Source of the DNA: an uncultured bacterium
GTDB taxonomy: Bacteria; Acidobacteriota; JAQAZP01
Length of the DNA: 64,000 nt
NCBI GenBank assembly: GCA_965531145.1
Contig: CBESOE010000007.1
Span: 36 to 64,035, forward strand
Direction of reading: 5' to 3'
Part shown: in pieces, positions 20,947-35,575 of the stretch
How the letters are laid out: every line of letters starts with the position of its first letter
How positions within the stretch are numbered: the stretch's first letter is position 1
Position numbers and translations under genes: made by a program
The notes under the pieces: generated by a model
What the model was told of the DNA's origin: nothing
What the model saw: only the letters and a program-made list of their open reading frames with translations
The model's database searches: none

Positions 20947-21011
20947 ACAGCTCCCGATAACGATGTATCGTGCGCGGCCGGCGGGCCGGCCCGAGAGGAG
21001 TGGATCACACG

Positions 21012-21284
21012 ATGAGCGAGGATGACAAGTCGCTTTCCCTGAAAATGAAGAACCTGATCGTCAACCGGCTGAAGCTGGAGATCGAACCCGAAGAGATCGA
21101 GAATGACCAGACCCTGTTCGGTGAAGGGCTGGGCCTCGATTCCATCGATGCCCTCGAACTGGTGCTTGGCCTGGAACAGGAGTTCGGGGTCAAGATCGAG
21201 GACGAGGAGGTGGGGGTCAAGGCCTTTGCCTCCATCGATGCCCTGGTCGCCTTTGTCAAGGAGAAGGGTGTTCAATCCGCATGA
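21012..21284 (+). CDS. acpP: Acyl carrier protein
   Basis: About 90 aa and acidic. Phosphopantetheine attachment motif GLDSIDALEL. RBS GAGGAG upstream. Confidence 0.85.
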   Translation: MSEDDKSLSLKMKNLIVNRLKLEIEPEEIENDQTLFGEGLGLDSIDALELVLGLEQEFGVKIEDEEVGVKAFASIDALVAFVKEKGVQSA

Positions 21285-21763: not shown

Positions 21764-23022
21764 CCAACGAGGTGACCAACGAGAAGACGGCAGTTGCTTC
21801 CCGCCGGGTGGTGATCACCGGGTTGGGGGCGGTTTCCGCGCTGGGCCCCGATGTGCCGTCCCTGCTTGCCGGGGTTGTGGAGGGCCGCTGCGGTATCCGG
21901 CCGGTGACCCTCTTCGACACCTCACCATTTCGCACACACACCGGTGGGGAACTGCTTGGATTTGATGCCGGGGCCCACTTCAGCCGGCGCGAACAGCGGC
22001 GGCTCTCCCGGGCCGACATGGCCGGGCTGGTGGCGGCCGCGGAAGCCCTGGGCGGCGCCCGGGCCGGCTCCGGGCCGATCTGCGATCCGGACCGGGTGGG
22101 CGTTATTCTCGGCGGCGGCGTTGGGGGGCTTTTCGACAGCGAGGCCTATTACCGCACAGTGCTGGGCCGGGGTTGGAAATCGGTGCCCGCCACCCGGGCC
22201 CTGGGACATTTCCCCTGCGCCACGGCCGACCGCATCGCCGAGCGCTGGGGCTTCGGCGGTCTGCGCACCACCGTGGTCACCGCCTGCTCGTCCAGCACGC
22301 TGGCCATCGGCCAGGCATTCGACGCCATCCGCACCGGGGCGGTGGAGATGGCGGTCACCGGCGGCAGCGATACCCTGAGCCGCCTGACCTACAGCGGGTT
22401 CAATTCCCTCCGCTCGGTGGACCCCGATGTCTGCCGGCCCTTCGACGCCGGCCGCAAGGGACTCTCCCTGGGCGAGGGGGCGGCCATCCTGGTCCTCGAG
22501 CCGCTGGACGTGGCCCTGGATCGCGGTGCCCCGATCCACGGGGAGGTGCTGGGCTGTGGCATGTCCTCGGACGCCCACCACATGACCGCACCGCACCCGC
22601 AGGGGGAGGGGGCAGCCCTGGCCATGGAGCGGGCCATCAGCCAGGCCGGGCTGGTTCCCGGGCAGGTGGACTACATCAATGCCCACGGCACCGGGACCCC
22701 GCACAACGACCTCGCCGAAACCAGGGCGATCCACCGCACCTTCGGCGAGAATGGGAAATCGATCCCGGTGAGCTCCACCAAGTCGATGCTGGGCCACTGT
22801 CTCGGTTCCGCCGGCGCCATGGAGGCCCTGGTCACCATCCTCGCCCTGCGGGACCGGTTCATTCCGCCCACGGCCAACCTGGAGCAGCCCGACCCGGAGT
22901 GCGACCTGGCCCATGTGCCACTGGTCAGCCGGCCGGGGACTCCCGAGGTGGGGATATCCAACTCCTTTGCTTTTGGCGGCAACAACGGCTGTCTGGTCCT
23001 GAGGAGATACCATGAGCTCTGA
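21760..23022 (+). CDS. fabF: Beta-ketoacyl-ACP synthase (KAS I/II type, catalytically complete)
   Basis: Active-site Cys in VVTACSSSTLAIG. His-His in NAHGTGTPHND and KSMLGHCLGSAG. GTG start overlapping the upstream stop (GTGA). Confidence 0.85.
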   Translation: MTNEVTNEKTAVASRRVVITGLGAVSALGPDVPSLLAGVVEGRCGIRPVTLFDTSPFRTHTGGELLGFDAGAHFSRREQRRLSRADMAGLVAAAEALGGARAGSGPICDPDRVGVILGGGVGGLFDSEAYYRTVLGRGWKSVPATRALGHFPCATADRIAERWGFGGLRTTVVTACSSSTLAIGQAFDAIRTGAVEMAVTGGSDTLSRLTYSGFNSLRSVDPDVCRPFDAGRKGLSLGEGAAILVLEPLDVALDRGAPIHGEVLGCGMSSDAHHMTAPHPQGEGAALAMERAISQAGLVPGQVDYINAHGTGTPHNDLAETRAIHRTFGENGKSIPVSSTKSMLGHCLGSAGAMEALVTILALRDRFIPPTANLEQPDPECDLAHVPLVSRPGTPEVGISNSFAFGGNNGCLVLRRYHEL

Positions 23023-24265
23023 GACCCGGCCGGCCGAAACTGGAGTGGTGGTTACCGGCATGTCCGCCGTGTCGCCCATGGGAACCGGCAGTGAGCCGCT
23101 GCTCCGGGGGCTCTGGTCGGGGGAAAACGCCTGGCGTCCGGTCCCGGAGGGGCCCCTGGCGGGGCAGCGGGCCCGGCTGGCGGCCCTGGTCCAGGACTTC
23201 GAACCACGGGCGCACATCCCGGTGATGAAACTGCGCCGGATGGACAACTGCACCCGGTTCTCGGTGGTGGCCGCCCAGCTGGCTTTCGAGCACGCCGGCC
23301 TGGCGGAGGAGGACCTCTCCTCCTGCGGGGTCGTCTTCGGCACCGGCACCGCCGGCTCCACCTCGGTGGCCGAGTATCTTCAGGGACTGCTGGTGGACTC
23401 GGCGGAGGGGCAGTTCCCCATGCTCTTTCCCAACACCGTGCCCAATGCACCGGCCGGCCAGGTGGCCATCCGTTTCGGCATCCGCGGGCCCAACGCCACG
23501 GTGAGTCAGCGGGAGAGTTCCGGCCTGCACGCCCTGGCCCGGGCCGCGGAGTTCATCCGTCTCGGCCGATGCCACTGCGTGCTGGTGGCCGGGGTGGACG
23601 AGTATTCCACCGAGTTGCTGGCCTTCTACGACCGGATGGGCTTTCTCTCCCCGGGCCGCTCCGGAGGTGAGGAGTCCTGCCGGCCCTTTTCCGCACGCCG
23701 CAACGGCTGGATGGTGGGGGAGGGGGCCTATGCCCTGGTGCTGGAATCGGCCGATCACGCCCACCGGCGTGGTGCGCCGCTGCTGGGCCGCCTCCTCGGC
23801 ACCGGTTGGAGCGGCAGCACCTGCTCCACCTACCGCTGGCCCGAGGAGCACGACGCCTATGTCCGCTGCATGGGGGGGGCGCTCCGCAGCAGCGGCCTGG
23901 ACGCCGGTGCGCTGGGGGCGGTGATGGCGTCGGCCAACGGCAACCAGGTGCTGGACCGGATGGAGGCCCTGGCCCTGGGCGAACTGTTCGCTGACGGCGG
24001 CGGTATGCCGCCGGTCACCGCGGTGAAATCAATACTTGGCGAGTCGGGAGCCTGCGGTGTGGCCCAGGCCCTGGCGGCGCTGGGTGTGCTGGAGCGGGGC
24101 ACGGTGCCCCCCACCACCGGCGGCGAGGCCGGTGACGCCGGCGGCCCGCAGGTGAACCTGGTGACCGGTGAGGCGCTGCACCCGCCACGGGCTCCCGAAG
24201 CGGTGCTGGTGAACAGTTTCGCGTCCGGCGGCAGCAATGTCAGTATGGTGATCGCCCGCGGGTGA
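23012..24265 (+). CDS. Ketosynthase-like protein lacking the catalytic triad (chain-length-factor / KS-beta-like)
   Basis: Thiolase fold of KAS length. Where the catalytic Cys should be, the sequence reads TVSQRESSG (Gln/Glu instead of Cys). The two His motifs are also absent (ANGNQ; ILGESGACG). Overlaps the KS stop by 11 nt. Confidence 0.7.
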   Translation: MSSETRPAETGVVVTGMSAVSPMGTGSEPLLRGLWSGENAWRPVPEGPLAGQRARLAALVQDFEPRAHIPVMKLRRMDNCTRFSVVAAQLAFEHAGLAEEDLSSCGVVFGTGTAGSTSVAEYLQGLLVDSAEGQFPMLFPNTVPNAPAGQVAIRFGIRGPNATVSQRESSGLHALARAAEFIRLGRCHCVLVAGVDEYSTELLAFYDRMGFLSPGRSGGEESCRPFSARRNGWMVGEGAYALVLESADHAHRRGAPLLGRLLGTGWSGSTCSTYRWPEEHDAYVRCMGGALRSSGLDAGALGAVMASANGNQVLDRMEALALGELFADGGGMPPVTAVKSILGESGACGVAQALAALGVLERGTVPPTTGGEAGDAGGPQVNLVTGEALHPPRAPEAVLVNSFASGGSNVSMVIARG

Positions 24266-24296
24266 ATGGCCGCACCGGCGGCGGCGGAGGAGAGCG

Positions 24297-24779
24297 GTGG
24301 GAACCGAGAACAGCCCCCTGGGACGGCGCAACGCGGATGGCTGGTGGGAACTGAGGCTCCGTGTCCGCTTCTCCGAGGTCGATTCTTACGGGGTGGTCTG
24401 GCACGGTCGCTACCTCGCCTGGTTCGAGGAGGCGCGCAACGACCTGGCCCGCGGCTACGGGTTTACCCCGTCGGTGCTGGCCCGGAGCGGATACCAGCTG
24501 CCGGTGCGGGATGTTTCCCTGACCTTCAAATCACCGGCCGGCCTCGACGACGAGGTGCTGGTGGGCATTCTCTTCCATCCCACGGAAACCGCACTGATCG
24601 AGTTTGAATACCGGGTGGTGGATGCGGAATCCGGGCGGCTGATGGTCACCGGTAAGACCCGGCAGGTGGTCACGCGGGTTGATCACGAATTGTTGCTGAC
24701 CTACCCCCGGCCGATCCGGGAGGCCCTGGACCGTCTCAGGCAGGACCAGTCCGCATCGGGGGGCAACCATGAGCGGTGA
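24297..24779 (+). CDS. 4HBT/YbgC-type hotdog acyl-CoA/acyl-ACP thioesterase
   Basis: RFSEVDSYGVVWHGRYLAWFEEAR is the YbgC/4HBT catalytic-region signature. 160 aa. Confidence 0.65.
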   Translation: MGTENSPLGRRNADGWWELRLRVRFSEVDSYGVVWHGRYLAWFEEARNDLARGYGFTPSVLARSGYQLPVRDVSLTFKSPAGLDDEVLVGILFHPTETALIEFEYRVVDAESGRLMVTGKTRQVVTRVDHELLLTYPRPIREALDRLRQDQSASGGNHER

Positions 24780-25728
24780 ACGGAACGGCGATGCAGACCG
24801 TGCCCGCGTCCGCCCGGTCTGTCCCTCCTGCCGCAATTCCCTGGCGGCGGAGAGTGACGGGCCTTCCACCTGTTCGTCCTGCGGCGCCGTCTATTCCCGC
24901 ATCCCCTCCGGCCATCTGCGGCTTCTGCCCGGGGATGCCGGTGGCTTTCGGGACTGGTGGCTCGACGATGAGCAGAAACGGGCCCGGTTCATGGGCCAGT
25001 ATGTTGAACGCGAGGAAGCGGGGGAGCGGCGGCTGGCCCGGGAGTTCCTGCTCCCCCTGACCCGGCAGCTGGCCGGCCAGGGGCCGCTGCGGCGGGTGCT
25101 CTCCGTGGGCTGCGGTTCCGGTGAGGATCTGGAACTGCTGCGTGGAGCCGGCCTGGACACCTGCGGTGTGGACAGCGGCGGGCGCACCCTGCGCTGGGGG
25201 GACAAGGAACGTTCTCCGGACCGTTACTTCATGGCCGACGCGCTGCAGCTGCCGTTCACCGACGGCGAATTTGACCTGGCCTATTCCCTCGGGGTCATCG
25301 AGCACGTGGGCACGGTGGGGGACAGCCTGGAACTGGCCGCGGATGCCGGTGAACTGCGCCGGCGGTTTGCCGCTTCGGTGGCCCGGGTGGTTCGGCCCGG
25401 GGGCTGGATCTTCATCAGTTGCCCCAATCGCACCTTTCCCTTTGACTTCGCCCACGGCGCCGGACGTTTCGGGTTCCGCTTTCACGGTCCCGGAGACTTC
25501 CTCCTTTCCTACGGTGACGTGAAGCGGCTGTTCATCGACCATGCGGGCTGCCAGTCGATCCGGCCGCTCTCCATGAAGGGCTATCTCGACCTGGCCCAGG
25601 CCGCTGCCGGCGGGGGGATGCTGATGCGGATGGCCGCGCCGCTCTTCGGCCTTTACTTGCATGCATTGCCGCGGCCTCTTTATACTTCTCCGCTATACCC
25701 GGCTGTATTGGCCCTTATCAAACGCTGA
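24769..25728 (+). CDS. Class I SAM-dependent methyltransferase with N-terminal Cys4 zinc-ribbon
   Basis: CPSCRN...CSSCG ribbon. Motif I VLSVGCGSGEDL. Methyltransf_11-like post-I region (ADALQLPFTDGEFDLAYS). Confidence 0.7.
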   Translation: MSGERNGDADRARVRPVCPSCRNSLAAESDGPSTCSSCGAVYSRIPSGHLRLLPGDAGGFRDWWLDDEQKRARFMGQYVEREEAGERRLAREFLLPLTRQLAGQGPLRRVLSVGCGSGEDLELLRGAGLDTCGVDSGGRTLRWGDKERSPDRYFMADALQLPFTDGEFDLAYSLGVIEHVGTVGDSLELAADAGELRRRFAASVARVVRPGGWIFISCPNRTFPFDFAHGAGRFGFRFHGPGDFLLSYGDVKRLFIDHAGCQSIRPLSMKGYLDLAQAAAGGGMLMRMAAPLFGLYLHALPRPLYTSPLYPAVLALIKR

Positions 25729-25742
25729 ACAGCGGAGCGACG

Positions 25743-26798
25743 ATGATCAAGCGAAACATCTGTGTGGTCACCTCCCACGTGCCGATGGTGTTCGGCGGGC
25801 ACCTGATCATCGCCCGTTCACTGGTCAGCGCCCTCAAGGACATGGGCTACAACTCGGATGTGATCTACACCCCCCAGAACCGTTTCGGGCGCCAGCTCTC
25901 GGCCTACCTGGCCAACCGGCTCACCGATGTGGGCCGTACCGGCGGCGACGAGGTGGTGGACCAGATCATCTCCCTGCGCTACCCCAGCTATGCGGTCAAG
26001 CACCCGCTCCACGTCTGCTGGCTGAACCACCGCATGCGCGAATACTACGATCTCTGGGAAGATTTCCTCGGGGTGATCCCCACCGGCAAGGGCAAACTCA
26101 AGGAGCGCTTCCGCCGCCGGCTGATCCAGCGGCTGGACAACCACCTGCTGAAGCGCAACGTGAAGAACCTCTACGTGATTTCGGGGACGATCAGGAAACG
26201 GCTGGAAACCTGGGGCGGGATCCCGGCCCAGGTGCTGCTGCCGCCGCCGCCCCTGGGCCGGGACTACCACACCGACAGTTACGAGAACTTCATCTTCACC
26301 GTGTCCCGCCTGCACAAGCTGAAGCGGATCAACCTGCTGCTGGACGCCTTCATGCTGGTGCGCGACACCGACGTCAAGTGCCTGATCGCCGGCGAGGGCG
26401 ACGAATACGACCGGCTGGCCAAGCGGATCAAGGACAACGATCTGGAGGGGCGGGCCATTCTCCTCGGCCGGGTGAGCGACCAGGAACTGGCCGACTACTA
26501 CGCCCGCTGCCGGGCGGTTTTCTTCGGGCCGCGGAACGAGGACTTCGGCTTCGTCACCATCGAGGCCTTCCGCAGCCGCAAGTGCGTCATCACCTGCCAT
26601 GACAGTGGCGGCCCGCTGGACCTGGTGGAAGACGGTGTTTCGGGTTTTATCACCCGGCCCGATCCCACCAGGATCGCCGAGCGGATCGACCAGCTGGTGG
26701 CCGATCCGGGCCTGGCCGAACGGATGGGCCAGGCGGGGTACGAGGCGAGTCTGCCGGTCACCTGGGAGAACGTGGTGCGGACACTGGTGAAGATATGA
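25743..26798 (+). CDS. Glycosyltransferase family 1 (GT4, GT-B fold)
   Basis: The C-terminal half carries the GT1 EX7E-type region (GFVTIEAFRSRKCVITCHDSGGPLDLVEDGVSGF). Confidence 0.75.
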   Translation: MIKRNICVVTSHVPMVFGGHLIIARSLVSALKDMGYNSDVIYTPQNRFGRQLSAYLANRLTDVGRTGGDEVVDQIISLRYPSYAVKHPLHVCWLNHRMREYYDLWEDFLGVIPTGKGKLKERFRRRLIQRLDNHLLKRNVKNLYVISGTIRKRLETWGGIPAQVLLPPPPLGRDYHTDSYENFIFTVSRLHKLKRINLLLDAFMLVRDTDVKCLIAGEGDEYDRLAKRIKDNDLEGRAILLGRVSDQELADYYARCRAVFFGPRNEDFGFVTIEAFRSRKCVITCHDSGGPLDLVEDGVSGFITRPDPTRIAERIDQLVADPGLAERMGQAGYEASLPVTWENVVRTLVKI

Positions 26799-27577
26799 TG
26801 ATCTCCGCGGGGCAACCGGCCCATCTCACGGTGGTGATCCCGGCCTACAACGAGGAGAAGCGGATCGGACCGACCCTGGAACGGATCTGCGGCTACCTGG
26901 AGAAGCGTTCCTATCCCTGGGAGATCGTGGTGGTCAATGACGGCAGCAGGGACGGGACGGTCCAGATCGCCAGGGAACTGCTGGCCGGCTGTGAACACCA
27001 CACGGTGATCGACCGCAAGTTCAACCGGGGCAAGGGCTACTCGGTGCGGCAGGGAATGCTGGCCGGCCGCGGGCGCTTCCTCCTCTTTTCCGACGCCGAT
27101 CTCTCCACGCCCATCGAGGACGTGGAGCGACTGCTGCCCCCCCTGGAGTCCAGGGAGGTGCAGGTGAGCATCGGTTCCCGGGCACTGCGTGACTCCCGGG
27201 TGGAGGTACACCAGCCCTGGTGGCGTGAGACCATGGGCAAGAGCTTCAACCTCTTCGTGCGGCTGATCGCCCTCGGCGGCCTCCACGACACCCAGTGCGG
27301 GTTCAAGTGCTTTACCCGCGAGGCGGCAAAGGCCATCTTCAGCGTGGCCCGCATCGACGGCTTCGGTTTTGACGTGGAAGCCCTGTACCTGGCCCGCAAG
27401 TTCGGCTACGGGGTCAAGGAGATCGGTGTGCGCTGGGTCAACTCGCCCGATTCGAAGGTCCACCCGCTCTCCGATTCGTCGCGGATGCTGGCCGATCTGC
27501 TGCGCATCCGTTTCACCGACCTCCGGGGAGGATACCGGTCCGGAAACGGCCTGGATCGCCGGGGGCGGCAAGGTTGA
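26795..27577 (+). CDS. Glycosyltransferase family 2 (polyprenyl-phosphate beta-glucosyltransferase-like)
   Basis: VVIPAYNEEKRI...VVVNDGSRDGT...FSDADLSTP are the GT-A signatures. Overlaps the GT1 stop (ATGA). Confidence 0.8.
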   Translation: MMISAGQPAHLTVVIPAYNEEKRIGPTLERICGYLEKRSYPWEIVVVNDGSRDGTVQIARELLAGCEHHTVIDRKFNRGKGYSVRQGMLAGRGRFLLFSDADLSTPIEDVERLLPPLESREVQVSIGSRALRDSRVEVHQPWWRETMGKSFNLFVRLIALGGLHDTQCGFKCFTREAAKAIFSVARIDGFGFDVEALYLARKFGYGVKEIGVRWVNSPDSKVHPLSDSSRMLADLLRIRFTDLRGGYRSGNGLDRRGRQG

Positions 27578-27605
27578 TGATTTCCGGGAAAGGGAGGATG
27601 GCACC

Positions 27606-29291
27606 ATGCTCAGATGCACGGGATCCGGCAACAACTCCTGGCGGCTGTTCTGTCTCCTGCTGACCGTCCTGCTGCCGGCCTGGGGCTGGCTTGCCGGCTG
27701 CGGTACCCCGCCCGCTGAACAACCGGCGGTGGAGGGCCCGGTGCGTGGCGGGACCATGGTGGTGGGCTGGACCAACGACGCCGACGCGCTGAACCCGGTG
27801 GTCCAGCAGACCATGCTCGCCTCCCACGTCGATACCCTGATCTATCCCAACCCCACCACCGAGGTCTTCGAGGACTGCCGCCTCACCGTACAGCCCCTGC
27901 TGGCCGAGAGCTGGACCTTCGGCGAGGACGGCCTGTCGCTGACCATGAAACTGCGCACGGACGTGACCTGGGATGACGGTACGCCGGTCACCGCGGACGA
28001 CGTGATCCTGACCAACCAGCTGATGGCCGATCCGGATTCGGCCAGCCCGCGTTTCAACCAGACCGAGCGCATCGCCGCGGTGGAGAAGATCGACCAGCAA
28101 ACGGTGCTCTTCCGTTTCACCGAGCCCTACGACCAGGAAACCCAGCTCTACCACGCATCCCAGGACCTGCTGCCGGCGCACCTCTTCCGCGATGCCGACC
28201 GGAAGAACCTGCGCCGCCACCCGCTTAACGAAAACCCGGTGGGCGCCGGACCCTACCGGCTGGAACGCTGGGAGCGCAACCAGGAACTGGTGCTTTCCGC
28301 CAATGCCGAAGCCACCCTCACCGACCCGCCCTACATCGAGCGGGTGGTTTTCCGTGTTATCCCCGAGTACACCACCCGTCTCACCGAGTTGATCGTCGGG
28401 CGGTTGGACGTGATGGACGGACTGCAGCCGGAGGATGTGGATCGGCTGAAGCGGGAAAACCCCGAGATCCGCATCCTGCCCCGGGGCTGGCGTTTCATGG
28501 AATACGTGGCCTGGAACAACCTCGACCCGCTTTTCTCCGACCCGCGGGTGCGTCGGGCGCTGACCATGTGCATCGACCGTGACCTGCTGATCCAGGTGCT
28601 GCTCACCGGTGGCGGGGAGTGCTTTGGCCGGCCCTGCACCGGTACCATAACCCCGGAGCTCTGCGGGGCCTGCAACGAAAATATCGAGCCGCTGCCCCAC
28701 GACCCGAAAGCGGCCCGGGCCATGCTCAACGACCTCGGTTGGAAGGACCGTGACGGCGATGGTGTGCTGGACAAGGACGGCCAGCCGTTCGCCTTCACCC
28801 TCAGGACCAGCGCCGGCAACCCGCGCCGCGAACAGGCCAGCGTATTGATCCAGGCCCAGCTCAGGGAAGCCGGCCTGGATGTGGAGCTGGAGCAGCTGGA
28901 GGGGGTGGTGTTGCACGAAAAGATGCGGAACAAGGACTTCCAGGCCGTGCTGAGCGGCTGGTCCGTGGGACTCTATGTCGAGCCGCGGTCCTTCTGGCAC
29001 AGTGGCGACGAGTATGTCTACAACTTCACCTCCTACAGCAATGCCTCGGTGGACCGGCTGATCGAGGCCGGGGAGGGGGAGACCGACATCGAGGCGGCCA
29101 ACGCCATCTGGCACGAGGTGCAGGAAATGATTTACGAAGATCAGCCTTACACCTTCCTCTACTGGGTGAACAATCTGATGGCGATCCACCAGCGGTTCGA
29201 AGGGGTGGAGGCCAACCTGCTCACTCCGCTCTACCACCTGGAGCGATGGTGGGAGAACCCCGACTGGGAGCGTGAGTTGGACGGCAGTTAG
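27606..29291 (+). CDS. ABC transporter substrate-binding lipoprotein, family 5 (Opp/Dpp/Nik-like)
   Basis: Lipoprotein signal LAGCGTPP. SBP_bac_5-like length and conserved stretches. RBS AAGGGAGGA before the ATG at 27606. The ORF track start at 27369 overlaps the GT2 gene and is rejected. Confidence 0.8.
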   Translation: MLRCTGSGNNSWRLFCLLLTVLLPAWGWLAGCGTPPAEQPAVEGPVRGGTMVVGWTNDADALNPVVQQTMLASHVDTLIYPNPTTEVFEDCRLTVQPLLAESWTFGEDGLSLTMKLRTDVTWDDGTPVTADDVILTNQLMADPDSASPRFNQTERIAAVEKIDQQTVLFRFTEPYDQETQLYHASQDLLPAHLFRDADRKNLRRHPLNENPVGAGPYRLERWERNQELVLSANAEATLTDPPYIERVVFRVIPEYTTRLTELIVGRLDVMDGLQPEDVDRLKRENPEIRILPRGWRFMEYVAWNNLDPLFSDPRVRRALTMCIDRDLLIQVLLTGGGECFGRPCTGTITPELCGACNENIEPLPHDPKAARAMLNDLGWKDRDGDGVLDKDGQPFAFTLRTSAGNPRREQASVLIQAQLREAGLDVELEQLEGVVLHEKMRNKDFQAVLSGWSVGLYVEPRSFWHSGDEYVYNFTSYSNASVDRLIEAGEGETDIEAANAIWHEVQEMIYEDQPYTFLYWVNNLMAIHQRFEGVEANLLTPLYHLERWWENPDWERELDGS

Positions 29292-29317
29292 GGCCCGGGT
29301 AACTTGACGGAGGACGG

Positions 29318-30286
29318 ATGGTCCGCTTCATCCTCAAGAGACTGCTCCATGCCGTGCCGATTCTGCTCGGTGTCTCGATCCTTCTCTTTTTTGTCCTGCA
29401 CCTCGCCCCCGGAGACCCGTCCAGCTACTACTTCAACCCCGACAGTTCACCGGAGACCCAGGCCCGGATGGCGAAGAACCTCGGGCTGGACCAGCCGTTG
29501 GGTGTGCAGTTCCTGCGCTGGATCTCGGCCTTTGCCCGCTTTGACTTTCAATACTCGCTGATCCACCACCGGCCGGTGACCGGGCTGATCCTCGAGGCGC
29601 TGCCCCGGACCCTGGTCCTCTCTTCCGCCGCACTGCTGCTGATGTTCGGCGGCGGTATCCTGCTGGGTGTGTTCTCCGCGGCCCGGCGCAACTCCCTGGC
29701 CGACCACGTGGTGAGCGTGGTTTCGCTCTTCTTCTACTCCATGCCTACCTTCTGGCTGGCCCTGATGCTGGTGCTGCTTTTTGCCCTGCTGCTGCCCATC
29801 ATGCCCCCGTCCGGCCTCAGTTCGCCCAATGCCGACCTCTTGCCGCCCCTGCAGCGGCTGCTGGACCGCTTGTGGCACCTGGTGCTGCCGGCGCTGACCC
29901 TTGGCCTCTCCGGCGCGGCGGGTATCGCCCGTTACGCCCGGGGCAGCCTGCTGGAGGTCGCCGGCCAGGACTACATCCGCACGGCCCGGGCCAAAGGCCT
30001 CTCCGAACGCCAGGTACTTTTCAAGCACTCGCTGCGCAACGGGCTGATCCCGGTGATCACCCTCTTCGGGCTCTCGCTGCCCTTCCTCTTCGGCGGCTCG
30101 GTGCTGGTGGAGTGGATCTTTGCCTGGCACGGCATGGGGTGGCTGATGGTCAGCGCCATCGGCCAGCGGGATTACCCCCTGGTCATCGGCTGTACCTTCT
30201 TCTACAGCCTGATCGTGGTGCTGGGAAACCTGGTGGCTGACCTGCTGTACCGCGCGGCCGACCCGCGGATCAGGAGGCAGTCATGA
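29318..30286 (+). CDS. ABC transporter permease (DppB/OppB-like)
   Basis: N-terminal MVRFILKRLL...GDP motif typical of DppB/OppB. Six TM helices. BPD_transp_1 EAA-like loop. Confidence 0.85.
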   Translation: MVRFILKRLLHAVPILLGVSILLFFVLHLAPGDPSSYYFNPDSSPETQARMAKNLGLDQPLGVQFLRWISAFARFDFQYSLIHHRPVTGLILEALPRTLVLSSAALLLMFGGGILLGVFSAARRNSLADHVVSVVSLFFYSMPTFWLALMLVLLFALLLPIMPPSGLSSPNADLLPPLQRLLDRLWHLVLPALTLGLSGAAGIARYARGSLLEVAGQDYIRTARAKGLSERQVLFKHSLRNGLIPVITLFGLSLPFLFGGSVLVEWIFAWHGMGWLMVSAIGQRDYPLVIGCTFFYSLIVVLGNLVADLLYRAADPRIRRQS

Positions 30287-31131
30287 ACGGCCCATTTGCC
30301 CGGTTCAGGCAAAATCGAGTGGCCCTGGCCGGGCTGTGCCTGATCGTCACTATGTATCTCGCTGCGCTGATGGCCCCGGTGCTGGCGCCCTACGCCCCCG
30401 ACGAATCCATCGACCTGCTCAGCAACCGGAACTCGGCCCCTTCGGGCAGGCACATCCTGGGCACCGACCGCTACGCCCGGGACATCTTCAGCCGGCTGCT
30501 CTACGGTGCGCGGATCTCGCTCACCGTGGGGCTGGCGGCGGTGGGCCTCTCGCTGGTCATCGGTACCCTGGTGGGGCTGCTGGCCGGCCAGTTCGGCGGC
30601 TGGGTGGACAGCCTGCTGATGCGCCTGGTGGACCTGCTGATCTCCTTCCCCCGGCTGGTGCTGCTGCTGGCCGTGGCGGCGTTCTTCAATCGTTCGATCC
30701 TGCTGATCATGGTTCTGCTGGGCCTCACCGGCTGGATGACCACCGCCCGGGTGATCCGCGGCGAGATCCTCGCCCTGCGCGAGCGGGAGTTCGTCCTCGC
30801 CGCCGGCGCCCTGGGCGCTTCACCGTTCCGGGTGGCCTTCCGCCACCTGCTGCCAAACTGCCTGGCGCCGCTGGTGGTCACCGCCACTCTGGGCCTGGGC
30901 CAGACCATCCTGGTGGAGGCGGGACTCAGCTTCCTTGGCCTGGGCGTGCCGCCGCCCACCGCCAGCTGGGGGGCGATGGTCAACGAGGGGCGGCACCTGC
31001 TGCTGGAAGCGCCCTGGATCACCACCTTCCCCGGTCTGGCCATCGTTGGGGCCGTGCTCTGCTTCAACCTGGTGGGCGACGCCCTGCGGGATGCCTTCGA
31101 TCCCCGCCTGGACGGGGTGAAGGAGGGATAG
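30283..31131 (+). CDS. ABC transporter permease (DppC/OppC-like)
   Basis: OppC-type N-terminal domain and a BPD_transp_1 region (LGASPFRVAFRHLLPN). Overlaps the upstream stop (ATGA). Confidence 0.85.
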   Translation: MNGPFARFRQNRVALAGLCLIVTMYLAALMAPVLAPYAPDESIDLLSNRNSAPSGRHILGTDRYARDIFSRLLYGARISLTVGLAAVGLSLVIGTLVGLLAGQFGGWVDSLLMRLVDLLISFPRLVLLLAVAAFFNRSILLIMVLLGLTGWMTTARVIRGEILALREREFVLAAGALGASPFRVAFRHLLPNCLAPLVVTATLGLGQTILVEAGLSFLGLGVPPPTASWGAMVNEGRHLLLEAPWITTFPGLAIVGAVLCFNLVGDALRDAFDPRLDGVKEG

Positions 31132-31139
31132 GCGGGGCG

Positions 31140-32243
31140 ATGAACGTTCTCTGCTACGTCTCGGGGCACGGTTACGGGCACCTCACCCGGACCATCGCGT
31201 TGATCAACGCGATGGCCAGGCTTGACCCGGAAACCGGTTTCTTTGTCCGCACCACCGCACCCCGCTGGCTGCTGGAGGCCTGTGTCGCCGTCCCGGTGGA
31301 ATACCGGGAGGTGACCATCGACGCCGGGGTGCTGGAACGGGGGTCCCTGCACCAGGACTGCGAGGGGACCTTGGCCCACTGTGCGGAGATCCTCGGACAG
31401 CGAGACCGGATCATCGAACGGGAAGCCTCCTGGTGCTCCGCCCATCACATCTCGGTGATCGTCAGCGACATCCCGCCCCTGGCCTCGGAGATCGGTGACC
31501 GGGCCGGCATTCCGGTGGTGGCCATGGGCAACTTTTCCTGGGACTACATCTACCAGCCCTGGGAGACGGCCAACCCACAGTACGCCGGACTGGTGGATGA
31601 GATCCGCGGGGCGTATGACAAAACCAGCCTGCTGCTGCGACTGCCCCTGGCCCACGAAATGGACGCCTTTCCCCGTCAGCGGGACATACCCTTCATCGCC
31701 CGGCGTCGCCGTTGGGCGGCAGGAGAGGGGAGAGGCCGGCTGGGAATTCCCGACCACGAGTCACGGCCGCTGGCCCTGGTGGCCATGCGCATGGGTCACC
31801 ACCTGGCGGACGCCACCAACCGGCTGGCCGCCGGTGGCGAGTTCGTGGTATTGACCTTTGATCACCGGGGCCTTCCACCGGCCGAAAACCTCAGGGTGGT
31901 GCCCCGGGAACTGCAGAACAGGTTTCCCGATGTGCTGGCCACGGCGGATGTCCTGATCTCCAAGCTGGGATACAGCATGTGCGCCGAGACCGTGGCCGGC
32001 CGAACCCCGATTCTCTATGCCCCGCGGTTCGACTACCGCGAGCACGATGTGCTGGCCGCCGGTATCGGCCGCTACGTGCCGGCGTTGCCCATGCCCGAGG
32101 CCGATGACGGTGGCCGCAGCTGGCCCGAACTGCTGCACCGGTTGCTGGCCACGCCCATGCCATCGGCCCCGCCGGTGGACGGCGCCGACACCGCCGCCCG
32201 CCTCGTCCTCCAGATGGGGACAGCTACCTGCTTGGCTAAGTGA
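31140..32243 (+). CDS. Glycosyltransferase, GT-B fold (MurG/MGT GT28-like family)
   Basis: N-terminal Gly-rich loop VSGHGYGHLTR and a C-terminal nucleotide-sugar-binding-like half. The ORF track fuses 268 out-of-frame codons upstream. The ATG at 31140 follows the DppC-like stop. Confidence 0.5.
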   Translation: MNVLCYVSGHGYGHLTRTIALINAMARLDPETGFFVRTTAPRWLLEACVAVPVEYREVTIDAGVLERGSLHQDCEGTLAHCAEILGQRDRIIEREASWCSAHHISVIVSDIPPLASEIGDRAGIPVVAMGNFSWDYIYQPWETANPQYAGLVDEIRGAYDKTSLLLRLPLAHEMDAFPRQRDIPFIARRRRWAAGEGRGRLGIPDHESRPLALVAMRMGHHLADATNRLAAGGEFVVLTFDHRGLPPAENLRVVPRELQNRFPDVLATADVLISKLGYSMCAETVAGRTPILYAPRFDYREHDVLAAGIGRYVPALPMPEADDGGRSWPELLHRLLATPMPSAPPVDGADTAARLVLQMGTATCLAK

Positions 32244-32268
32244 TTGAAGCATAAGGACAAAGGAAAAC

Positions 32269-32407
32269 CGGGGACAGTTACCTCTTTAAGTGACATTCTG
32301 ATAGGATGAGCTTCAATCGAATTGAATCGAATTGGTAACTGTCCCCCGTTTTTTTAAGCTGTTGATATAATGATACTTAACGTTTCAGGTAGCTGTCCCC
32401 ATTTTTT
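32269..32407. promoter_or_regulatory. Structured intergenic element: terminator hairpin, promoter with extended -10, and a repeated GGTA(A/G)CTGTCCCC motif
   Basis: There is a 13-nt inverted repeat, GGGGACAGTTACC (32270-32282) against GGTAACTGTCCCC (32334-32346). It is followed by T8. The loop carries a nested TTCAATcgaATTGAA palindrome and an AATCGAATTG tandem. A third direct copy, GGTAGCTGTCCCC (32388-32400), is followed by T6. TGATATAAT (extended -10) lies at 32363-32371. Confidence 0.45.
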
Positions 32408-32475: not shown

Positions 32476-33207
32476 ATGAGCGGAACGCAGGCGGGGCAGG
32501 AAAACGGCCTGATTTTCGACGCCCGGGGCCTGACCAAGGTCTACCACATGGGCGAGGTGGAGGTTCACGCCCTGCGTGGCGTGGATTTTCAGCTGCGTCA
32601 GTCGGAGTTCTCCGTGCTGCTGGGGCCCTCGGGCAGCGGCAAATCCACCCTGCTCAACATCCTCGGCGGGTTGGATACCCCCACTGCCGGCCAGGTCTTT
32701 TACCGCGGCAAAGAGATCACCCTGGTGGGCGACGCCGAGCTGACTCAGTATCGCCGGCACCATGTCGGTTTTGTCTTCCAGTTCTACAACCTGATTCCCA
32801 GTCTCACCGCCCGGGAGAACGTGGCCCTGGTCACCGAGATCGTGCCCGAACCGCTGACCCCGGTGGCGGCGCTGGAACTGGTGGGGTTGGGAGACCGGGT
32901 GGATCACTTCCCGTCCCAGCTCTCGGGCGGCGAGCAGCAGCGGGTGGCCATTGCCCGGGCCATCGCCAAACAGCCCGACGTGCTGCTCTGCGACGAGCCC
33001 ACCGGCGCCCTGGACGTCTCTACCGGCATCGTGGTGCTGGAGGCCATCGAGACGGTGAACCGCGAGCTGGGCACCACCACCGCGGTGATCACCCACAACG
33101 CGGCCATTTCCGAGATGGCCGATACGGTGTTGCGGCTCTCCAACGGCAAGATCGCTTCGGTGGAGCACAACACGACCAAGATCCACCCCCGAGAGCTTCA
33201 CTGGTGA
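32476..33207 (+). CDS. ABC transporter ATP-binding protein (MacB/DevA-type)
   Basis: Walker [13 protein letters not shown] signature [14 protein letters not shown]. Walker [20 protein letters not shown] upstream. Confidence 0.85.
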
Positions 33208-33211
33208 CACC

Positions 33212-35575
33212 ATGCGACCGCTGAATCTCAAGCTGTTTCGCGACCTGTGGCAGATCAAGGGCCAGGCCCTGGCCATCAGCATGGTCATCGCCGCCGGGGT
33301 GGCGATGTTCGTGGCCTACATCAGCACCTTCCAGTCGCTGGACCTGACCCAGAACACCTACTACGAGCGCTACCGCTTCGGCGACGTGTTCGCCTCGCTG
33401 AAGCGGGCCCCCCTGCGGCTCCGCGAGCGGATCGAGGAGATCCCAGGCGTGGCCCGGGTGGAGACCCGGGTCGTGGTGGGGGTGAACCTCGATGTGGAGG
33501 GATCCGAGGAGCCGCTCACCGGCCGGCTGATCTCGATTCCCGAGCTGGACCGGGCGACGCTGAACGACGTCTTTCTGCGCAAGGGCCGCTACATCGAGCC
33601 CGACCGGCAGGACGAGGTGCTGGTCACCGAGGGGTTCGCCCTGGCCCACGGCCTGGAGCCGGGGGACAGCGTGGCCGCGGTGATCAACGGCCGCCGGCGC
33701 GAGCTGGAGATCGTCGGCATCGCCCTCTCACCGGAGTATGTCTACAACATTGCGCCCGGGGCGATGATGCCCGACGACAGCCGCTTCGGCATCTTCTGGA
33801 TGGAGCAGAAAGCCCTATCCGCCGCCTTTGACATGGAGGGCGGTTTCAACGACGTCGCCCTCTCCTTGATGCCCGGGGCCCAGGAGGACGAGGTGATCAC
33901 CCGCCTCGACCGCCTGCTGGAACCGTACGGCGGGCTGGGAGCCATTCCCCGCGCGCTCCAGCCGTCCCACTTCTACCTCGATGCCGAGCTGGCCGGCCTC
34001 AAGGGCGCCGGGCTGATGATCCCGGTAATCTTCTTTGCCGTGGCCGCTTTCCTGCTCAACGTGGTGTTGCTGCGCATCGTGGCCGTCCAGCGGCCGCAGA
34101 TCGCCGCGCTCAAGGCGCTGGGCTACACCAACGTCGAGATCGGCATGCACTACACCGGCTGGAGCCTGGTGGTCTCGCTGGTGGGCGCCGTCATCGGGGT
34201 GGCCAGCGGCGCCTGGCTCGGTTCGGCCATGACCACGCTCTACGGCGATTTTTTCCGCTTCCCGATCCTCGACTACCGGCTGGCCCCCGCCGTGCTGGTG
34301 GGGGCGGTGGTGGTGAGCGTCATCGCCGCTGTGCTGGGCGCTTTCGGCTCGGTGAAGCGGGCGGTGAAGCTGCCCCCGGCCGAGGCCATGCGCCCCGAAC
34401 CACCGTCGGGCTACGGTGTGAGCTGGGTCGAACGGCTGGGCCTCAAGCGGTTCTTCAGCCAGCCGGCTCGGATGATCATGCGCAACATCCAGCGGCGCCC
34501 CTGGCGCACCTTTGCTTCCATCACCGGCATCTCGTTCGGTGCGGCGATGATGGTGGTGGGGATGTTCTGGATCGACGCCATGGACCTGATGATGGACGTG
34601 CAGTACAACGTGGCCCAGCGCCAGGACATCACGGTCACCTTTGTGGAGCCGGCCTCTTCTCGCTCGCTGCACGAGATCGAGCGGATGCCCGGCGTGGTCT
34701 ACGCCGAGACGCTCCGTTCGGTGCCGGTGCGGCTGCGCTACGGCCACCGCTCGCGCATGGCTTCCATCACCGGCCTTGAAGCCGGGGCGCGTCTGAGCCG
34801 GGTGGTGAACACCGACTTCCGCCCGGTGACCATCCAGCCCCAGGGCCTGGTGCTCTCCTCCAAGATGGGTGAGATCCTGGGCGTGAAAGCCGGCGACGAA
34901 CTGATCGTCGAGGTGCTGGAGGGCCGGCGGCCCAAACGCACGGTGCTGGTCACCGAGCTTGTGGACGAGTTCCTTGGCACCTCGGCCTACATGGAGAACT
35001 CGGCGCTCCATGCCATGTTGCGCGAGGGGCCAAGCCTCTCCGGAGCCTTTATCCAGGTCGATTCGATCCACGCCGATGAGCTCTACCGGCGGCTCAAGCT
35101 GGTGCCCTTTGTCGCCGGGGTGGCACTCAAGTCGGCGGCGGTGGACAGTTTCTACGACACCATCGGCGAGAGCCTGGGCATCATGATCTTCTTCAATGTC
35201 CTCTTTGCCGGGATCATCGCCTTTGGCGTGGTCTACAACGCGGCACGGATCTCGCTTTCCGAGCGGGGCCGCGAGCTGGCCAGCCTGCGAGTGATGGGCT
35301 TCACGCGGGGGGAGATCTCCTTTATCCTGCTGGGGGAACTGGCCCTGGTGACCCTGGTCTCCCTGCCCGTGGGCATGGCGCTGGGTTACTGGCTGTCGGC
35401 GCTGGTGGTCACCGCTTACGACACCGAAGTGTACCGTTTTCCGCTGGTGGTCTCATCGAAAACATACGCCTACGCAGCGCTCACCGTGGGCGTGGCGGCG
35501 CTGATCTCCGGGGTGGTGGTCAAGCGTAAACTGAATAACCTCGATCTCGTTGAAGTTCTGAAGACCAGGGAGTGA
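33212..35575 (+). CDS. Large ABC transporter permease with two FtsX domains (DevC/YbbP-like, about 10 TM)
   Basis: 787 aa built as two repeated modules. Each has a TM helix, a periplasmic MacB-PCD-like domain and an FtsX 3-TM bundle (e.g. [15 protein letters not shown]; [18 protein letters not shown]). Confidence 0.8.

Follow-up and report, generated by a model that had tools for sequence, protein, structure and literature searches.

A predicted acidobacterial operon in which a putative aryl-polyene-family lipid cassette is followed by sugar enzymes and importer genes

Thirteen plus-strand genes of an uncultured Acidobacteriota lineage, all lying in the 64,000-nucleotide stretch of DNA analysed here (the window), are predicted from the sequence only to constitute one operon, which extends from a promoter at 19933-19961 to a terminator at 32270-32355. 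There is about an even chance that it is a mosaic operon, in which envelope sugar enzymes and an importer would share a transcript with a trimmed lipid cassette of the aryl-polyene (APE) family. The gene order is AT, ACP, DH, KSa, KSb (chain-length-factor-like, CLF-like), TE, MT, GT4, GT2b, SBP5, PermB, PermC and a GT1-fold glycosyltransferase (GTB). The interval under study comprises the 3′ two-thirds of the operon. GC3 frame analysis and Pfam searches supported plus-strand genes for MT, GT4 and GT2b. The predicted features, including those adjoining the operon, are as follows.

14634-15311, plus strand: GT2a, a 225-aa GT2 glycosyltransferase, ApeJ N-terminal-like and PpgS/AglJ-like (Pfam Glycos_transf_2, 81 bits)
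19006-19902, plus strand: polysaccharide deacetylase (Pfam Polysacc_deac_1 and DUF3473; TIGR03006 205 bits, cut-off 276)
19933-19961, plus strand: predicted sigma-70-like promoter TTGACA-17-TACAAT upstream of AT, 11 of 12 consensus matches
20041-20946, plus strand: FabD-like malonyl-CoA:ACP acyltransferase (AT; Pfam Acyl_transf_1; TIGR00128 168 bits, below cut-off)
21012-21284, plus strand: dedicated ACP, ApeE-like (PP-binding; NF006617 67.4 bits, cut-off 70; 42% identity to ApeE)
21281-21763, plus strand: FabZ/ApeP-like dehydratase (DH; FabA-like domain; FabZ 78.5 bits, below cut-off)
21760-23022, plus strand: ketosynthase KSa, catalytically intact by sequence (Pfam KS N- and C-terminal domains)
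23012-24265, plus strand: KSb, full-length KS-like, chain-length-factor-like, Cys-His-His triad lost
24297-24779, plus strand: hot-dog thioesterase, ApeK/YbgC-like (TE; 4HBT, 4HBT_2; TIGR00051 68.4 bits, cut-off 68.7)
24769-25728, plus strand: class I SAM methyltransferase with an N-terminal RlmA-type Cys4 zinc ribbon (MT; Pfam, motifs and structure neighbours)
25743-26798, plus strand: GT4-family retaining glycosyltransferase, REYYDLW subfamily (PF00534 Glycos_transf_1 112.6 bits, cut-off 26.4)
26795-27577, plus strand: GT2b, a DPM1/ArnC/GtrB-like GT2 of 260 aa (PF00535, 104.7 bits)
27606-29291, plus strand: SBP_bac_5 lipoprotein (SBP5), predicted substrate-binding protein of a PepT-type ABC importer (Pfam, 257 bits)
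29318-30286, plus strand: OppB/NikB-type permease (PermB; BPD_transp_1; NCBIfam)
30283-31131, plus strand: OppC/NikC-type permease (PermC; BPD_transp_1; NCBIfam)
31140-32243, plus strand: GT-B-fold, GT1-like glycosyltransferase (GTB), last gene of the operon (PF13528 / 'L-arabinokinase N-terminal'-type family)
32270-32355, plus strand: terminator-like long hairpin 3′ of the last gene, made up of a perfect stem of 13 bp and, after it, a U7 run
32476-36777, plus strand: separate downstream unit of a MacB/LolD/DevA-like ABC ATPase, a 787-aa FtsX permease and a membrane-fusion protein

The start of AT was moved from TTG 19933 to ATG 20041, which has AGGAG upstream of it; AT relatives are 308-314 aa long. 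The motif TTGACA-N16/17-TAnAAT is kept upstream of AT in the related loci L001, L011, L012 and L014. L012 has an extra gene between the deacetylase gene and AT, yet the promoter-like site remains with AT. A consensus scan, which is weak evidence, found no promoter-like sites within 19962-32243. The 13 genes overlap or are separated by gaps of at most 31 nt. Both overlaps on which the original prediction of contiguous same-strand genes was based were seen: an 11-nt overlap between the TE stop (24779) and the MT start (24769), and an ATGA shared by GT4 and GT2b at 26795-26798. It seems that TE and MT are translationally coupled via their overlap. Start/stop overlaps are also present between clearly unrelated upstream genes, namely GatA/Amidase_3 and Amidase_3/GT2a. 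The ABC unit downstream of the operon adjoins it in all clade members, and a functional tie between the two is speculative.

The cassette from AT to TE is predicted to be a member of the APE family of type II PKS-like lipid clusters. Like the canonical APE clusters of E. coli CFT073 (apeA-R) and Xenorhabdus doucetiae, it combines a type II PKS-like KS with a non-catalytic partner. KSa passes NF005589 (399.5 bits, cut-off 387) and retains the active-site Cys in TACSSS. In the alignment of KSb, Glu replaces the Cys of the triad, and Ser and Glu replace the two His residues, the same state being found in homologues. KSa and KSb would represent the ketosynthase and non-catalytic chain-length-factor partner of an APE cluster, and an ApeE/F-type dedicated ACP and an ApeI/P-type dehydratase can likewise be recognised. 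Matches of window proteins to ApeE, ApeR/O, ApeK and ApeJ were found, including 32% identity of TE to ApeK (E 4e-16) and 28% identity of GT2a to the ApeJ N-terminus (E 4e-18). The DH orthologues carry the precomputed annotation PF22817 (ApeP-like), whereas the window copy scores only as FabA/FabZ-like. Canonical APE clusters also carry a thioesterase, a methyltransferase and a GT2, as the window cluster does.

The window cluster differs from canonical APE clusters in lacking the aryl-starter AMP ligase/chorismatase, the ApeQ ketoreductase, the ApeD lysophospholipid acyltransferase and the ApeL/M/N (LolA/MMPL) export proteins; neither a cluster-encoded ApeQ, nor ApeM with ApeL/N, nor ApeH with ApeD was recognised in it. 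A tblastn search with proteins of L033, an APE-type locus of Vicinamibacteraceae, found no AMP ligase, chorismatase or LPLAT in the window or clade loci and no MMPL or LolA in the window or the eight clade loci. No SDR ketoreductase is encoded between 14.6 and 36.8 kb, and the only KR-like gene of the window is a stand-alone FabG-like SDR (61936-62676, minus strand). The cassette has no enoyl reductase, and no acyltransferase able to link an acyl chain to a sugar was found. KSb is full-length and KS-like, whereas the canonical APE partner is the short ApeC, to which KSb gave no BLASTP match. The FabD-like AT, GT4, a second GT2, the Opp/Nik-type importer and the GT1-fold enzyme are extra in comparison with canonical APE clusters.

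The original prediction had named neighbourhood conservation beforehand as a test, and the arrangement proved to be kept within one narrow clade and absent beyond it, an outcome that tells against the prediction outside that clade. The AT-to-PermC order is the same in six non-redundant related loci of one narrow clade (65-96% amino-acid identity). Sequence identity within the clade is 88-96% for GT4 and the permeases, compared with 65-87% for AT, DH and KSb. All clade rearrangements are at outer junctions (GatA|Ami3, GT2a|PDA, PDA|AT and PermC|GTB|ABC, where PDA is the deacetylase and Ami3 Amidase_3), and L012 has a 119-bp gap between MT and GT4. None of 80 distant loci with the same KS/CLF pair contains TE, MT, GT4, SBP5, the permeases or GTB; these comparisons used MAG and metagenome contigs with flanks of 7-10 kb, and genes lying farther out could escape notice. 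The recurring partners in the 80 loci are GT2a, the deacetylase and APE hallmark genes, and of the 60 distant loci with any match to an L033 query, 41 have at least three of five hallmark genes. In L033, the homologous KS/CLF pair is situated inside a canonical APE-type cluster. Such clusters of Vicinamibacteria/Acidobacteriota are homologous to the window locus in KSb (38-41%), KSa, ACP, GT2a (41-46%) and the deacetylase (39-49%). They differ in retaining the AMP ligase, FkbO/Hyg5 chorismatase, Lip_A_acyltrans, MMPL, LolA and KR and in being devoid of TE, MT, GT4, GT2b, SBP5, the permeases and the GT1-fold gene.

The genes of GT2a and the deacetylase are located upstream, outside the 13-gene operon. 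The NCBIfam scores of GT2a for AglJ (102 bits) and PpgS (98 bits) are both below the cut-off. GT2a homologues (34-46% identity) were found in 33 of the 80 distant loci, and deacetylase homologues (36-49% identity) in 41; with the eight close-clade loci counted in, the figures are 41 and 49 of 92 loci, respectively. Over evolutionary distance, the travelling sugar partners of the cassette are GT2a and the deacetylase, not the downstream block. Those homologues of MT, GT4 and GTB that lie beyond the clade are found in unrelated contexts.

The Cys4 ribbon predicted to precede Rossmann motif I of MT is evident in its sequence, where CPSC...CSSC is followed by VLSVGCGSGED, and the CxxC...CxxC pair is retained in eight of nine close homologues. 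The ribbon had been called unusual, but the architecture has a precedent. MT aligns with E. coli RlmA from the first CxxC onwards (BLASTP from C18/C5, 23% over 210 aa, E 2e-8), and its top Foldseek neighbour is RlmA(I) 1p91, a 23S rRNA m1G745 methyltransferase in which an N-terminal zinc ribbon likewise precedes a class I Rossmann domain. MT can be placed in the RlmA-type zinc-ribbon class, with metal binding as a prediction only; it differs from RlmA(I) in the low identity, the dissimilar C-terminal 100 residues and the genomic context. Its top structural neighbours also include the sugar O-methyltransferases AtmM and RebM. MT homologues at 44-50% identity have no ribbon and are located elsewhere. 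A counterpart of the APE O-methyltransferase ApeB was rejected, as BLASTP gave no match and ApeB is a Methyltransf_2 O-MT, whereas MT is a Methyltransf_11/23 protein with the ribbon. MT has the strongest tie to the cassette because of its predicted translational coupling to TE, and the chances for and against its acting on the cassette's product appear equal.

The first of the predicted glycosyltransferases, labelled GT1, is a real gene with another family assignment: Pfam 'group 1' corresponds to CAZy GT4, and with a Pfam score above the threshold and an invariant EX7E motif (E266...E274) the protein is a putative member of that family. It is 91-95% identical within the clade. None of 78 non-clade loci with a GT4 homologue (49-63% identity) contains MT, KS, SBP5 or GTB, and only one of them, L144, has a GT2 match, a weak one (26-28%). 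In more distant members of the family, the protein is joined to a Methyltransf_11 or GT2 domain, a hint that MT, GT4 and GT2 are able to act together as a module. The suggested likeness of GT2b to polyprenyl-phosphate sugar transferases was borne out by matches to DPMS (5mlz, E 4e-13) and ArnC (E 3e-11), and the DAD motif lies within LLFSDADL. DPM1/DPMS, ArnC, GtrB and PpgS share the GT-A catalytic domain and DxD with both GT2a and GT2b and are their best sequence matches. At 225-260 aa, however, GT2a and GT2b are shorter than ArnC/DPMS (322-374 aa), are without the C-terminal TM helices and reach none of the curated NCBIfam cut-offs for polyprenyl-phosphate glycosyltransferases. GT2b, with 260 aa, is too short for the C-terminal TM segments of 322-374-aa GtrB/ArnC/DPMS chains and scores far below the cut-offs (ArnC 47 against 529, PpgS 50.7 against 370). 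By its GT-A domain, DxD and similarity, GT2b may be regarded as polyprenyl-phosphate GT2-like while missing the curated equivalog cut-off. It is rather doubtful that GT4 acts on the cassette's product, and the same can be said of GT2b.

The stretch 24769-32243 had been described as a run of tailoring genes, but 47% of it (3504 of 7475 bp, within 27606-31131) consists of the SBP5 lipoprotein and two permease genes, which had gone unmentioned. SBP5 has the lipobox LAGC, and its best NCBIfam matches, Opp4A and NikA, are below the cut-off. A PepT-type (Opp/Dpp/Nik) importer consists of an SBP5 protein, two permeases and a pair of ATPases. The operon encodes the first three of these components; no OppD/F-type ATPase was found in the clade loci or among the scanned window genes, which include all but a few ORFs. 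The importer ATPases may be encoded elsewhere. The importer has no obvious role in lipid tailoring and almost certainly does not act on the cassette's product.

The start of GTB is an internal ATG within a long ORF (30336-32243). Its only Pfam match is PF13528 (18 bits, cut-off 25), a search of the PDB by sequence gave no significant match, and a profile match to OleD (E 0.012) is the sole sequence-level link to GT1 enzymes. The AlphaFold model (pLDDT 96) has a GT-B fold, and Foldseek matched it to GT1 macrolide and natural-product glycosyltransferases with a probability of 1.00, E of about 1e-10 to 1e-11 and TM of 0.55-0.65. The assignment of this third glycosyltransferase as MurG/MGT-like was upheld in its MGT-like part, as the modelled fold superimposable on GT1 enzymes points to a GT1-fold class. 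MurG (GT28) was rejected: Glyco_transf_28 and Glyco_tran_28_C are absent, the context is not that of dcw, and MurG is missing from the top 50 Foldseek hits, all of which are GT1 enzymes. GTB shares the two-Rossmann GT-B fold with OleD/OleI, GtfB, CalG and the elaiophylin GT at only 12-17% identity, and belongs to an uncharacterised PF13528 / MJ1255-like family (JGI label 'L-arabinokinase') of more than 885 proteins in unrelated contexts. GTB is missing from L012, and its action on the cassette's product is unlikely.

It seems that only co-transcription ties the downstream enzymes to the lipid genes, as suggested by the promoter, the lack of internal gaps, the single terminator and the TE/MT coupling. 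Three observations count against a mosaic operon: operon membership over six loci is a classic indicator of shared function, canonical APE clusters with a thioesterase, a methyltransferase and a GT2 set a precedent for tailoring logic, and the domain fusions of distant GT4 relatives hint at a joint MT, GT4 and GT2 module. The downstream block might tailor the acyl product. The original idea that an acyl or polyene product is O-methylated and glycosylated is reasonable in that APE products are glycolipids, but the block does not travel with the cassette. In the characterised APE product, a GalNAc-phosphate-glycerolipid carries the acyl chain in ester linkage (bioRxiv 10.1101/2020.12.19.423268). 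If all four enzymes tailored the cassette product, TE would free an unsaturated acid that is then methylated and glycosylated; a glycosyl ester or glycoside would arise through GT2 or the GT1-fold enzyme and be extended by GT4. The cell would thereby gain a new envelope glycolipid, for which the adjacent MacB/DevA-like pump might be the exporter. The single promoter-to-terminator unit with both overlaps, the unbroken AT-to-PermC order in the clade, the glycolipid nature of APE products and the MT, TE and GT2 genes of APE clusters are consistent with this scheme. So are the catalytic-type motifs of all three glycosyltransferases (EX7E, DAD and invariant His/Lys/Glu) and the natural-product glycosyltransferases among the GT1-fold structural neighbours. 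Nevertheless, block and cassette co-occur in one clade only, MT is unrelated to ApeB, the closest non-clade GT4 and GT1-fold homologues are stand-alone in unrelated and variable contexts, L012 dispenses with the GT1-fold gene, the importer lies mid-block and no acyltransferase was found; we consider this scheme less likely than not.

It is less likely still that the block is an independent lipid-linked glycan module that shares the transcript only through tight co-directional packing. Here GT2b would supply a polyprenyl-phosphate sugar, while a glycan or sugar conjugate would be built by GT4 together with the GT1-fold enzyme and then O-methylated by MT. The module would serve a cell-envelope polymer or protein glycosylation that has nothing to do with the acyl chain. 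The closeness of GT2b to DPMS, ArnC, GtrB and PpgS, the fusions of distant GT4 relatives with MT11 and GT2 domains, a pattern of polysaccharide pathways, the AtmM and RebM neighbours of MT and the overlaps between unrelated upstream genes argue for it. On the other hand, genes for a flippase, a polymerase, a ligase and an initiating phosphotransferase are all absent from the operon, the trio of MT, GT4 and GT2b does not occur together elsewhere either, and GT2b is without the TM segments of GtrB/ArnC-type enzymes. A chance juxtaposition, with the downstream genes having their own promoters and the apparent operon being an annotation artefact, is very improbable; the 119-bp gap in L012 and the weakness of consensus promoter scans would agree with it, but the window gaps are short, six related loci preserve the gene order and no internal promoter-like site was seen.

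As a mosaic operon, the locus would work as follows. The FabD-like AT would load malonate on the ApeE-like ACP, active KSa with triad-less KSb would elongate the chain, and its processing would fall to a borrowed FabG-type reductase together with the FabZ/ApeP-like dehydratase. As no enoyl reductase is present, an unsaturated or 3-hydroxylated chain is probable, and the ApeK-like TE would either release this chain or proof-read it. For the sugar head group, the cassette would have inherited the PpgS/ApeJ-like GT2a and the deacetylase as partners. The 3′ part, with enzymes whose nearest relatives are stand-alone and an ATPase-less Opp/Nik-type importer, is most likely an envelope module, and the window locus is a modest variation on a known cluster type.

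Third-position GC frame analysis combined with Pfam, in a window of about 65% G+C, placed seven plus-strand genes in the interval 24769-32243:

24769-25728 (+): class I SAM methyltransferase (MT), Methyltransf_11/23
25743-26798 (+): GT4 glycosyltransferase, Glycos_transf_1, 112.6 bits
26795-27577 (+): GT2 glycosyltransferase (GT2b), Glycos_transf_2, 104.7 bits
27606-29291 (+): SBP5 lipoprotein, SBP_bac_5, 257 bits, LAGC lipobox
29318-30286 (+): permease PermB, BPD_transp_1, OppB type
30283-31131 (+): permease PermC, BPD_transp_1, OppC type
31140-32243 (+): GT-B fold glycosyltransferase (GTB), an internal ATG of ORF 30336-32243

The original prediction described a block of four enzymes tailoring the product of a FAS-like cassette. 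The four enzyme genes are present, and motifs are intact in the methyltransferase and the three glycosyltransferases, but the run is not a tailoring block only, as transporter genes that had been missed occupy 3504 of its 7475 bp. The predicted overlaps were found in the sequence, both between the stop of the thioesterase gene (TE) at 24779 and the MT start at 24769 and between GT4 and GT2b, where the overlap is ATGA.

The seven genes end a run of 13, in the order AT, ACP, DH, KSa, KSb, TE, MT, GT4, GT2b, SBP5, PermB, PermC and GTB, which overlap or are separated by gaps of at most 31 nt. A sigma-70-like site, TTGACA-17-TACAAT (19933-19961, 11 of 12 consensus matches), overlaps the TTG mechanically opening the AT ORF; the true start codon of AT is an ATG at 20041, with AGGAG upstream. 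A TTGACA-N16/17-TAnAAT element also precedes AT in the related loci L001, L011, L012 and L014, and in L012 it remains with AT despite a gene inserted between AT and the deacetylase gene. A consensus scan found no promoter-like sites within the AT-GTB stretch. Downstream of GTB there is a hairpin (32270-32355) with a 13-bp perfect stem and U7, and then an AT-rich 232-bp spacer. This combination of promoter, terminator and short gaps, with no internal promoter-like site, makes it very probable that MT and the glycosyltransferases share a transcript with the lipid cassette and the importer. Four copies of a 13-bp motif, GGTAACTGTCCCC (or GGTAGCTGTCCCC), lie at 32216-32400, two on each strand and about 54-64 bp apart, as nested inverted repeats that cover the last GTB codons and the spacer upstream of the ABC exporter. 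The four-copy array is also present in L001 (17441-17616) and partly in L011; it may act as a nested terminator or else as an operator array.

The cassette comprises an active-type KS and a triad-less partner, a dedicated ACP, a malonyl transferase, a dehydratase and a hot-dog thioesterase. The catalytic Cys of KSa is intact, whereas in KSb a Glu occupies the Cys position and neither His is kept, and the two therefore form a KS/CLF-type pair. The aryl polyene (APE) reference, the ape cluster of E. coli CFT073, was compared by BLASTP and gave 42% for ACP with ApeE, 33-34% for KSa with ApeR/ApeO, 28% for KSb with ApeR and 32% (E 4e-16) for TE with ApeK. An ApeP-like assignment of the window copy of DH was rejected, since only FabA/FabZ-like scores were obtained even at E 0.1. 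The upstream GT2 protein (GT2a, 14634-15311) resembles the N-terminus of ApeJ (28%, E 4e-18), and its best scores are with AglJ and the polyprenyl-phospho-GalNAc synthase PpgS. In the published APE lipid, the polyene is esterified to a GalNAc-phosphate-glycerolipid (bioRxiv 10.1101/2020.12.19.423268), with ApeJ as the glycosyl/acyltransferase (bioRxiv 10.1101/2020.12.19.423268; PMC8253772); the best scores of GT2a fit this structure.

A Vicinamibacteraceae locus, L033, represents the canonical APE type, with AMP ligase, FkbO/Hyg5 chorismatase, Lip_A_acyltrans, GT2, MMPL, LolA and KR genes besides ACP, deacetylase and KS genes. Of 60 distant loci having any match to L033 queries, 41 contain at least three of five hallmark genes, and the same queries found none of these hallmarks in the window cluster or its clade. 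Because hallmarks recurrent elsewhere are absent here, the window cluster is a trimmed APE-family cassette: it has no starter ligase, no KR, no acyltransferase and no Lol/MMPL export. The sugar partners inherited with it, GT2a and the deacetylase, lie upstream of the operon and outside it. By the APE family's own criteria the locus is not a member, since KR and the ApeM transporter are absent, and it is a variant of the APE type. A literature search gave nothing specific on this variant in Acidobacteriota. To specialists in bacterial BGCs, the locus should come as no great surprise.

A genome scan with the KSb alignment placed the window in uncultured Acidobacteriota, its closest matches being the MAG contigs CAWIIB010000009.1 (3.5 Mb) and JAQAZP010000330.1. 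Within the narrow clade of uncultured Acidobacteriota (L001, L004, L011/L013, L012, L014 and duplicates), the order from AT through PermC is kept in six non-redundant loci at 65-96% protein identity, and GTB is missing from L012. All rearrangements are at outer junctions:

GT2a/deacetylase: 3.7-kb insertion in the window; beta-helix gene in L011
deacetylase/AT: rearranged in L012
PermC/GTB/ABC: rearranged in L012 and L004
GatA/amidase: rearranged in L012

The pattern speaks for a constrained unit from AT to PermC; operon polarity alone would produce it without shared function. The identity of GT4 (91-95%) and the permeases (88-96%; PermB 91-96%) is well above that of AT, DH and KSb (65-87%), which suggests a different selective regime. 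In L011/L013 (16490-18064, 3.5-Mb MAG), the permease genes are called short, at 242 and 201 aa, which points to frameshifts or to errors in long-read assembly and not to genuinely truncated genes. The window insertion of about 3.7 kb (15325-18875), absent from L001 and L004, carries genes for an ABC ATPase and a MacB/FtsX permease together with two genes on the minus strand, of which one has no family match and the other a weak lycopene-cyclase domain match (25 bits, sub-cut-off).

A homologous KS/CLF pair (33-41% identity) was found in 80 further loci, mostly from Vicinamibacteria and other Acidobacteriota, but also from NC10 and Thermodesulfobacteriota. Homologues of GT2a occur in 33 of them (34-46% identity) and of the polysaccharide deacetylase in 41 (36-49%), or in 41 and 49, respectively, of 92 loci including eight of the close clade; ACP, DH and KSa are likewise recurrent. 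By tblastn at E < 1e-5, TE, MT, GT4, the permeases and GTB were found in none of the 80, and SBP5 gave one weak match (25% identity, L031). The conservation of the neighbourhood thus holds within the clade (AT-PermC, six loci) but not in the distant KS/CLF loci. The same KS/CLF family is present in other phyla in L024 (NC10 MAG, 5505-18269) and L009, beside Lip_A_acyltrans, polysaccharide deacetylase, a B12-radical SAM enzyme, an FAD amine-oxidase-like protein, two HGD-D/DUF2229 proteins and fabD-fabG-acp-fabZ. With the KS/CLF and deacetylase core in common, such loci represent another type of lipid cluster.

GT4 belongs to a large and well-conserved subfamily of about 350-aa proteins (566 representative clusters at E < 1e-30) with an invariant REYYDLW motif; its EX7E motif (E266, E274) is invariant, and its PDB relatives are retaining GT4 enzymes, among them WbaZ, BshA, TarM and PimA. 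A metagenome scan with a seven-sequence GT4 alignment found 78 non-clade loci (49-63% identity), none with MT, KS, SBP5 or GTB near GT4 and a single one (L144) with a weak GT2 match. The contexts inspected, such as ACT protein, GT4, OPT and CstA, or PNP_UDP_1, GT4 and HhH-GPD, look variable and housekeeping in character. In L139 (7992-12846), a metagenome locus of unrelated lineage, OPT and CstA peptide transporter genes come after a GT4 orthologue of 55% identity; the arrangement is loosely reminiscent of the order GT4, GT2 and peptide importer of the window and may be coincidental. Of 44 long metagenome loci, 17 have a TE homologue no more than a few kb from GT4, a proximity dismissed because opposite-strand genes separate the two in both loci inspected, L139 and L103, where the gene order is identical. 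The predicted resemblance of GT2b to polyprenyl-phosphate sugar transferases was confirmed (DPMS 5mlz, E 4e-13; ArnC, E 3e-11; GtrB). GT2b carries a DAD motif and scores far under all curated NCBIfam cut-offs; it has 260 aa and lacks the TM segments of the ArnC and DPMS chains, which have 322-374 aa.

GTB has a sub-threshold PF13528 match as its only Pfam match and no sequence match in the PDB. Its AlphaFold model (pLDDT 96, 45 homologues) has a GT-B fold, and the best structural neighbours are all GT1 natural-product/macrolide glycosyltransferases (E ~1e-10 to 1e-11, TM 0.55-0.65). Of the proposed MurG/MGT-like nature, the MGT half stands at fold level and the MurG half does not. The search yielded more than 885 family members, which JGI often labels 'L-arabinokinase'. 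The inspected genomic contexts showed no recurrent partner: GTB homologues lie after a Lon protease gene in a Vicinamibacterales MAG, or alone beside an Amidase_2/UDPGT pair.

In MT, the predicted N-terminal Cys4 (CPSC...CSSC) does precede the VLSVGCGSGED motif and is kept in eight of nine close homologues, about all that exist. The architecture is not without precedent, as RlmA shows: the E. coli protein is alignable from the first CxxC on (23% over 210 residues, E 2e-8), and RlmA(I) 1p91 ranks first among the structural neighbours. Next come sugar O-methyltransferases (AtmM, RebM), MitM and phosphoethanolamine N-methyltransferases, from which the substrate is not deducible. MT was rejected as a cluster marker because its 44-50% identical homologues have no ribbon and lie in unrelated contexts, e.g. 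next to ribosomal protein genes, and so carry no cluster information. It was also rejected as a counterpart of ApeB, a Methyltransf_2 O-methyltransferase in E. coli CFT073 to which it shows no similarity and whose Pfam family is not its own.

The Opp/Nik-type importer (27606-31131), a binding protein and two permeases, is among the most conserved parts of the operon, and neither the scanned window genes nor the clade loci showed an OppD/F-type ATPase. Directly 3' of the operon in every clade member, even without GTB, lies a MacB-type exporter (32476-36777) made up of a LolD/DevA-like ATPase, a membrane-fusion protein and an unusual FtsX permease, of double length at 787 aa. As DevBCA-type pumps export heterocyst glycolipids, one may speculate by analogy that it replaces the LolA/MMPL export of APE clusters. 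A stand-alone gene for a FabG-like SDR (61936-62676, minus strand) lies about 30 kb from the cassette, outside any fab operon. The protein scores above the cut-off of NF009466 and below that of TIGR01830 (277 against 298 bits), and it shares 45% identity with the KR of the Vicinamibacteraceae APE-type locus. Elsewhere in the window are a second sugar-related pair (48151-50547; NAD-dependent epimerase/dehydratase and a 413-aa GT4), two surface-protein genes unrelated to the finding (56-1063, ScyF-like NHL-repeat protein, 180 bits, sub-cut-off; 38266-41652, 1128-aa FG-GAP/sortilin-like repeat protein) and no tRNAs.

It seems that the chain would be unsaturated or 3-hydroxylated, because there is no enoyl reductase, with the missing KR step supplied by a borrowed FabG-type reductase, for which 61936-62676 (-) is a candidate. 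By analogy with APE lipids, and considering the conserved GT2a/deacetylase pair, the chain may end on a sugar-phosphate lipid; no acyltransferase joining the two was found, and here the model has its main gap. The original prediction is partly confirmed in what it observed and partly supported in what it inferred: a glycolipid product is plausible, but the specific role assigned to the downstream block is unsupported.

The full tailoring model, in which the downstream enzymes modify the cassette product, is consistent with the shared transcript and the clade synteny and is at odds with the distant loci; it is possible but rather doubtful. For its parts, the chances differ. MT, translationally coupled to TE, has the strongest claim to being a true tailoring enzyme, at roughly even odds; such a role is questionable for GT4 and GT2b and unlikely for GTB, and action of the importer on the product is scarcely conceivable. 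Fusions to Methyltransf_11 or GT2 domains occur in more distant relatives of GT4 (35-37% identity), so MT, GT4 and GT2 can be one module, albeit one of a sugar-modifying kind. An independent lipid-linked glycan module agrees with these fusions and with the GT2b relatives and is improbable. A complete lack of co-regulation is very improbable in view of the operon structure.

A bolder version of the tailoring model is that the clade rebuilt an APE-type cluster into a new envelope glycolipid pathway. KSa/KSb would make an aryl-less unsaturated acid freed by the thioesterase; the co-transcribed MT, GT2, GT4 and GT1-fold enzymes would methylate and glycosyl-esterify or glycosylate it, with a logic as in staphyloxanthin, where a polyene acid is glucosylated by a GT2; and the neighbouring MacB/DevA-like ABC pump would export the product, replacing LolA/MMPL. 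Taken jointly, these steps are unlikely.

Should the downstream enzymes really use the cassette product as a substrate, the locus would specify a new class of acidobacterial envelope lipid and exemplify remodelling, with another head group and export route, in the very widespread APE family. If not, it would be a caution that tight co-directional packing and start/stop overlaps join unrelated genes in compact MAG genomes, and that single-clade synteny is no proof of pathway membership. Either way, attention shifts to the upstream GT2 and the deacetylase as the conserved sugar partners of KS/CLF cassettes in Acidobacteriota and other phyla.
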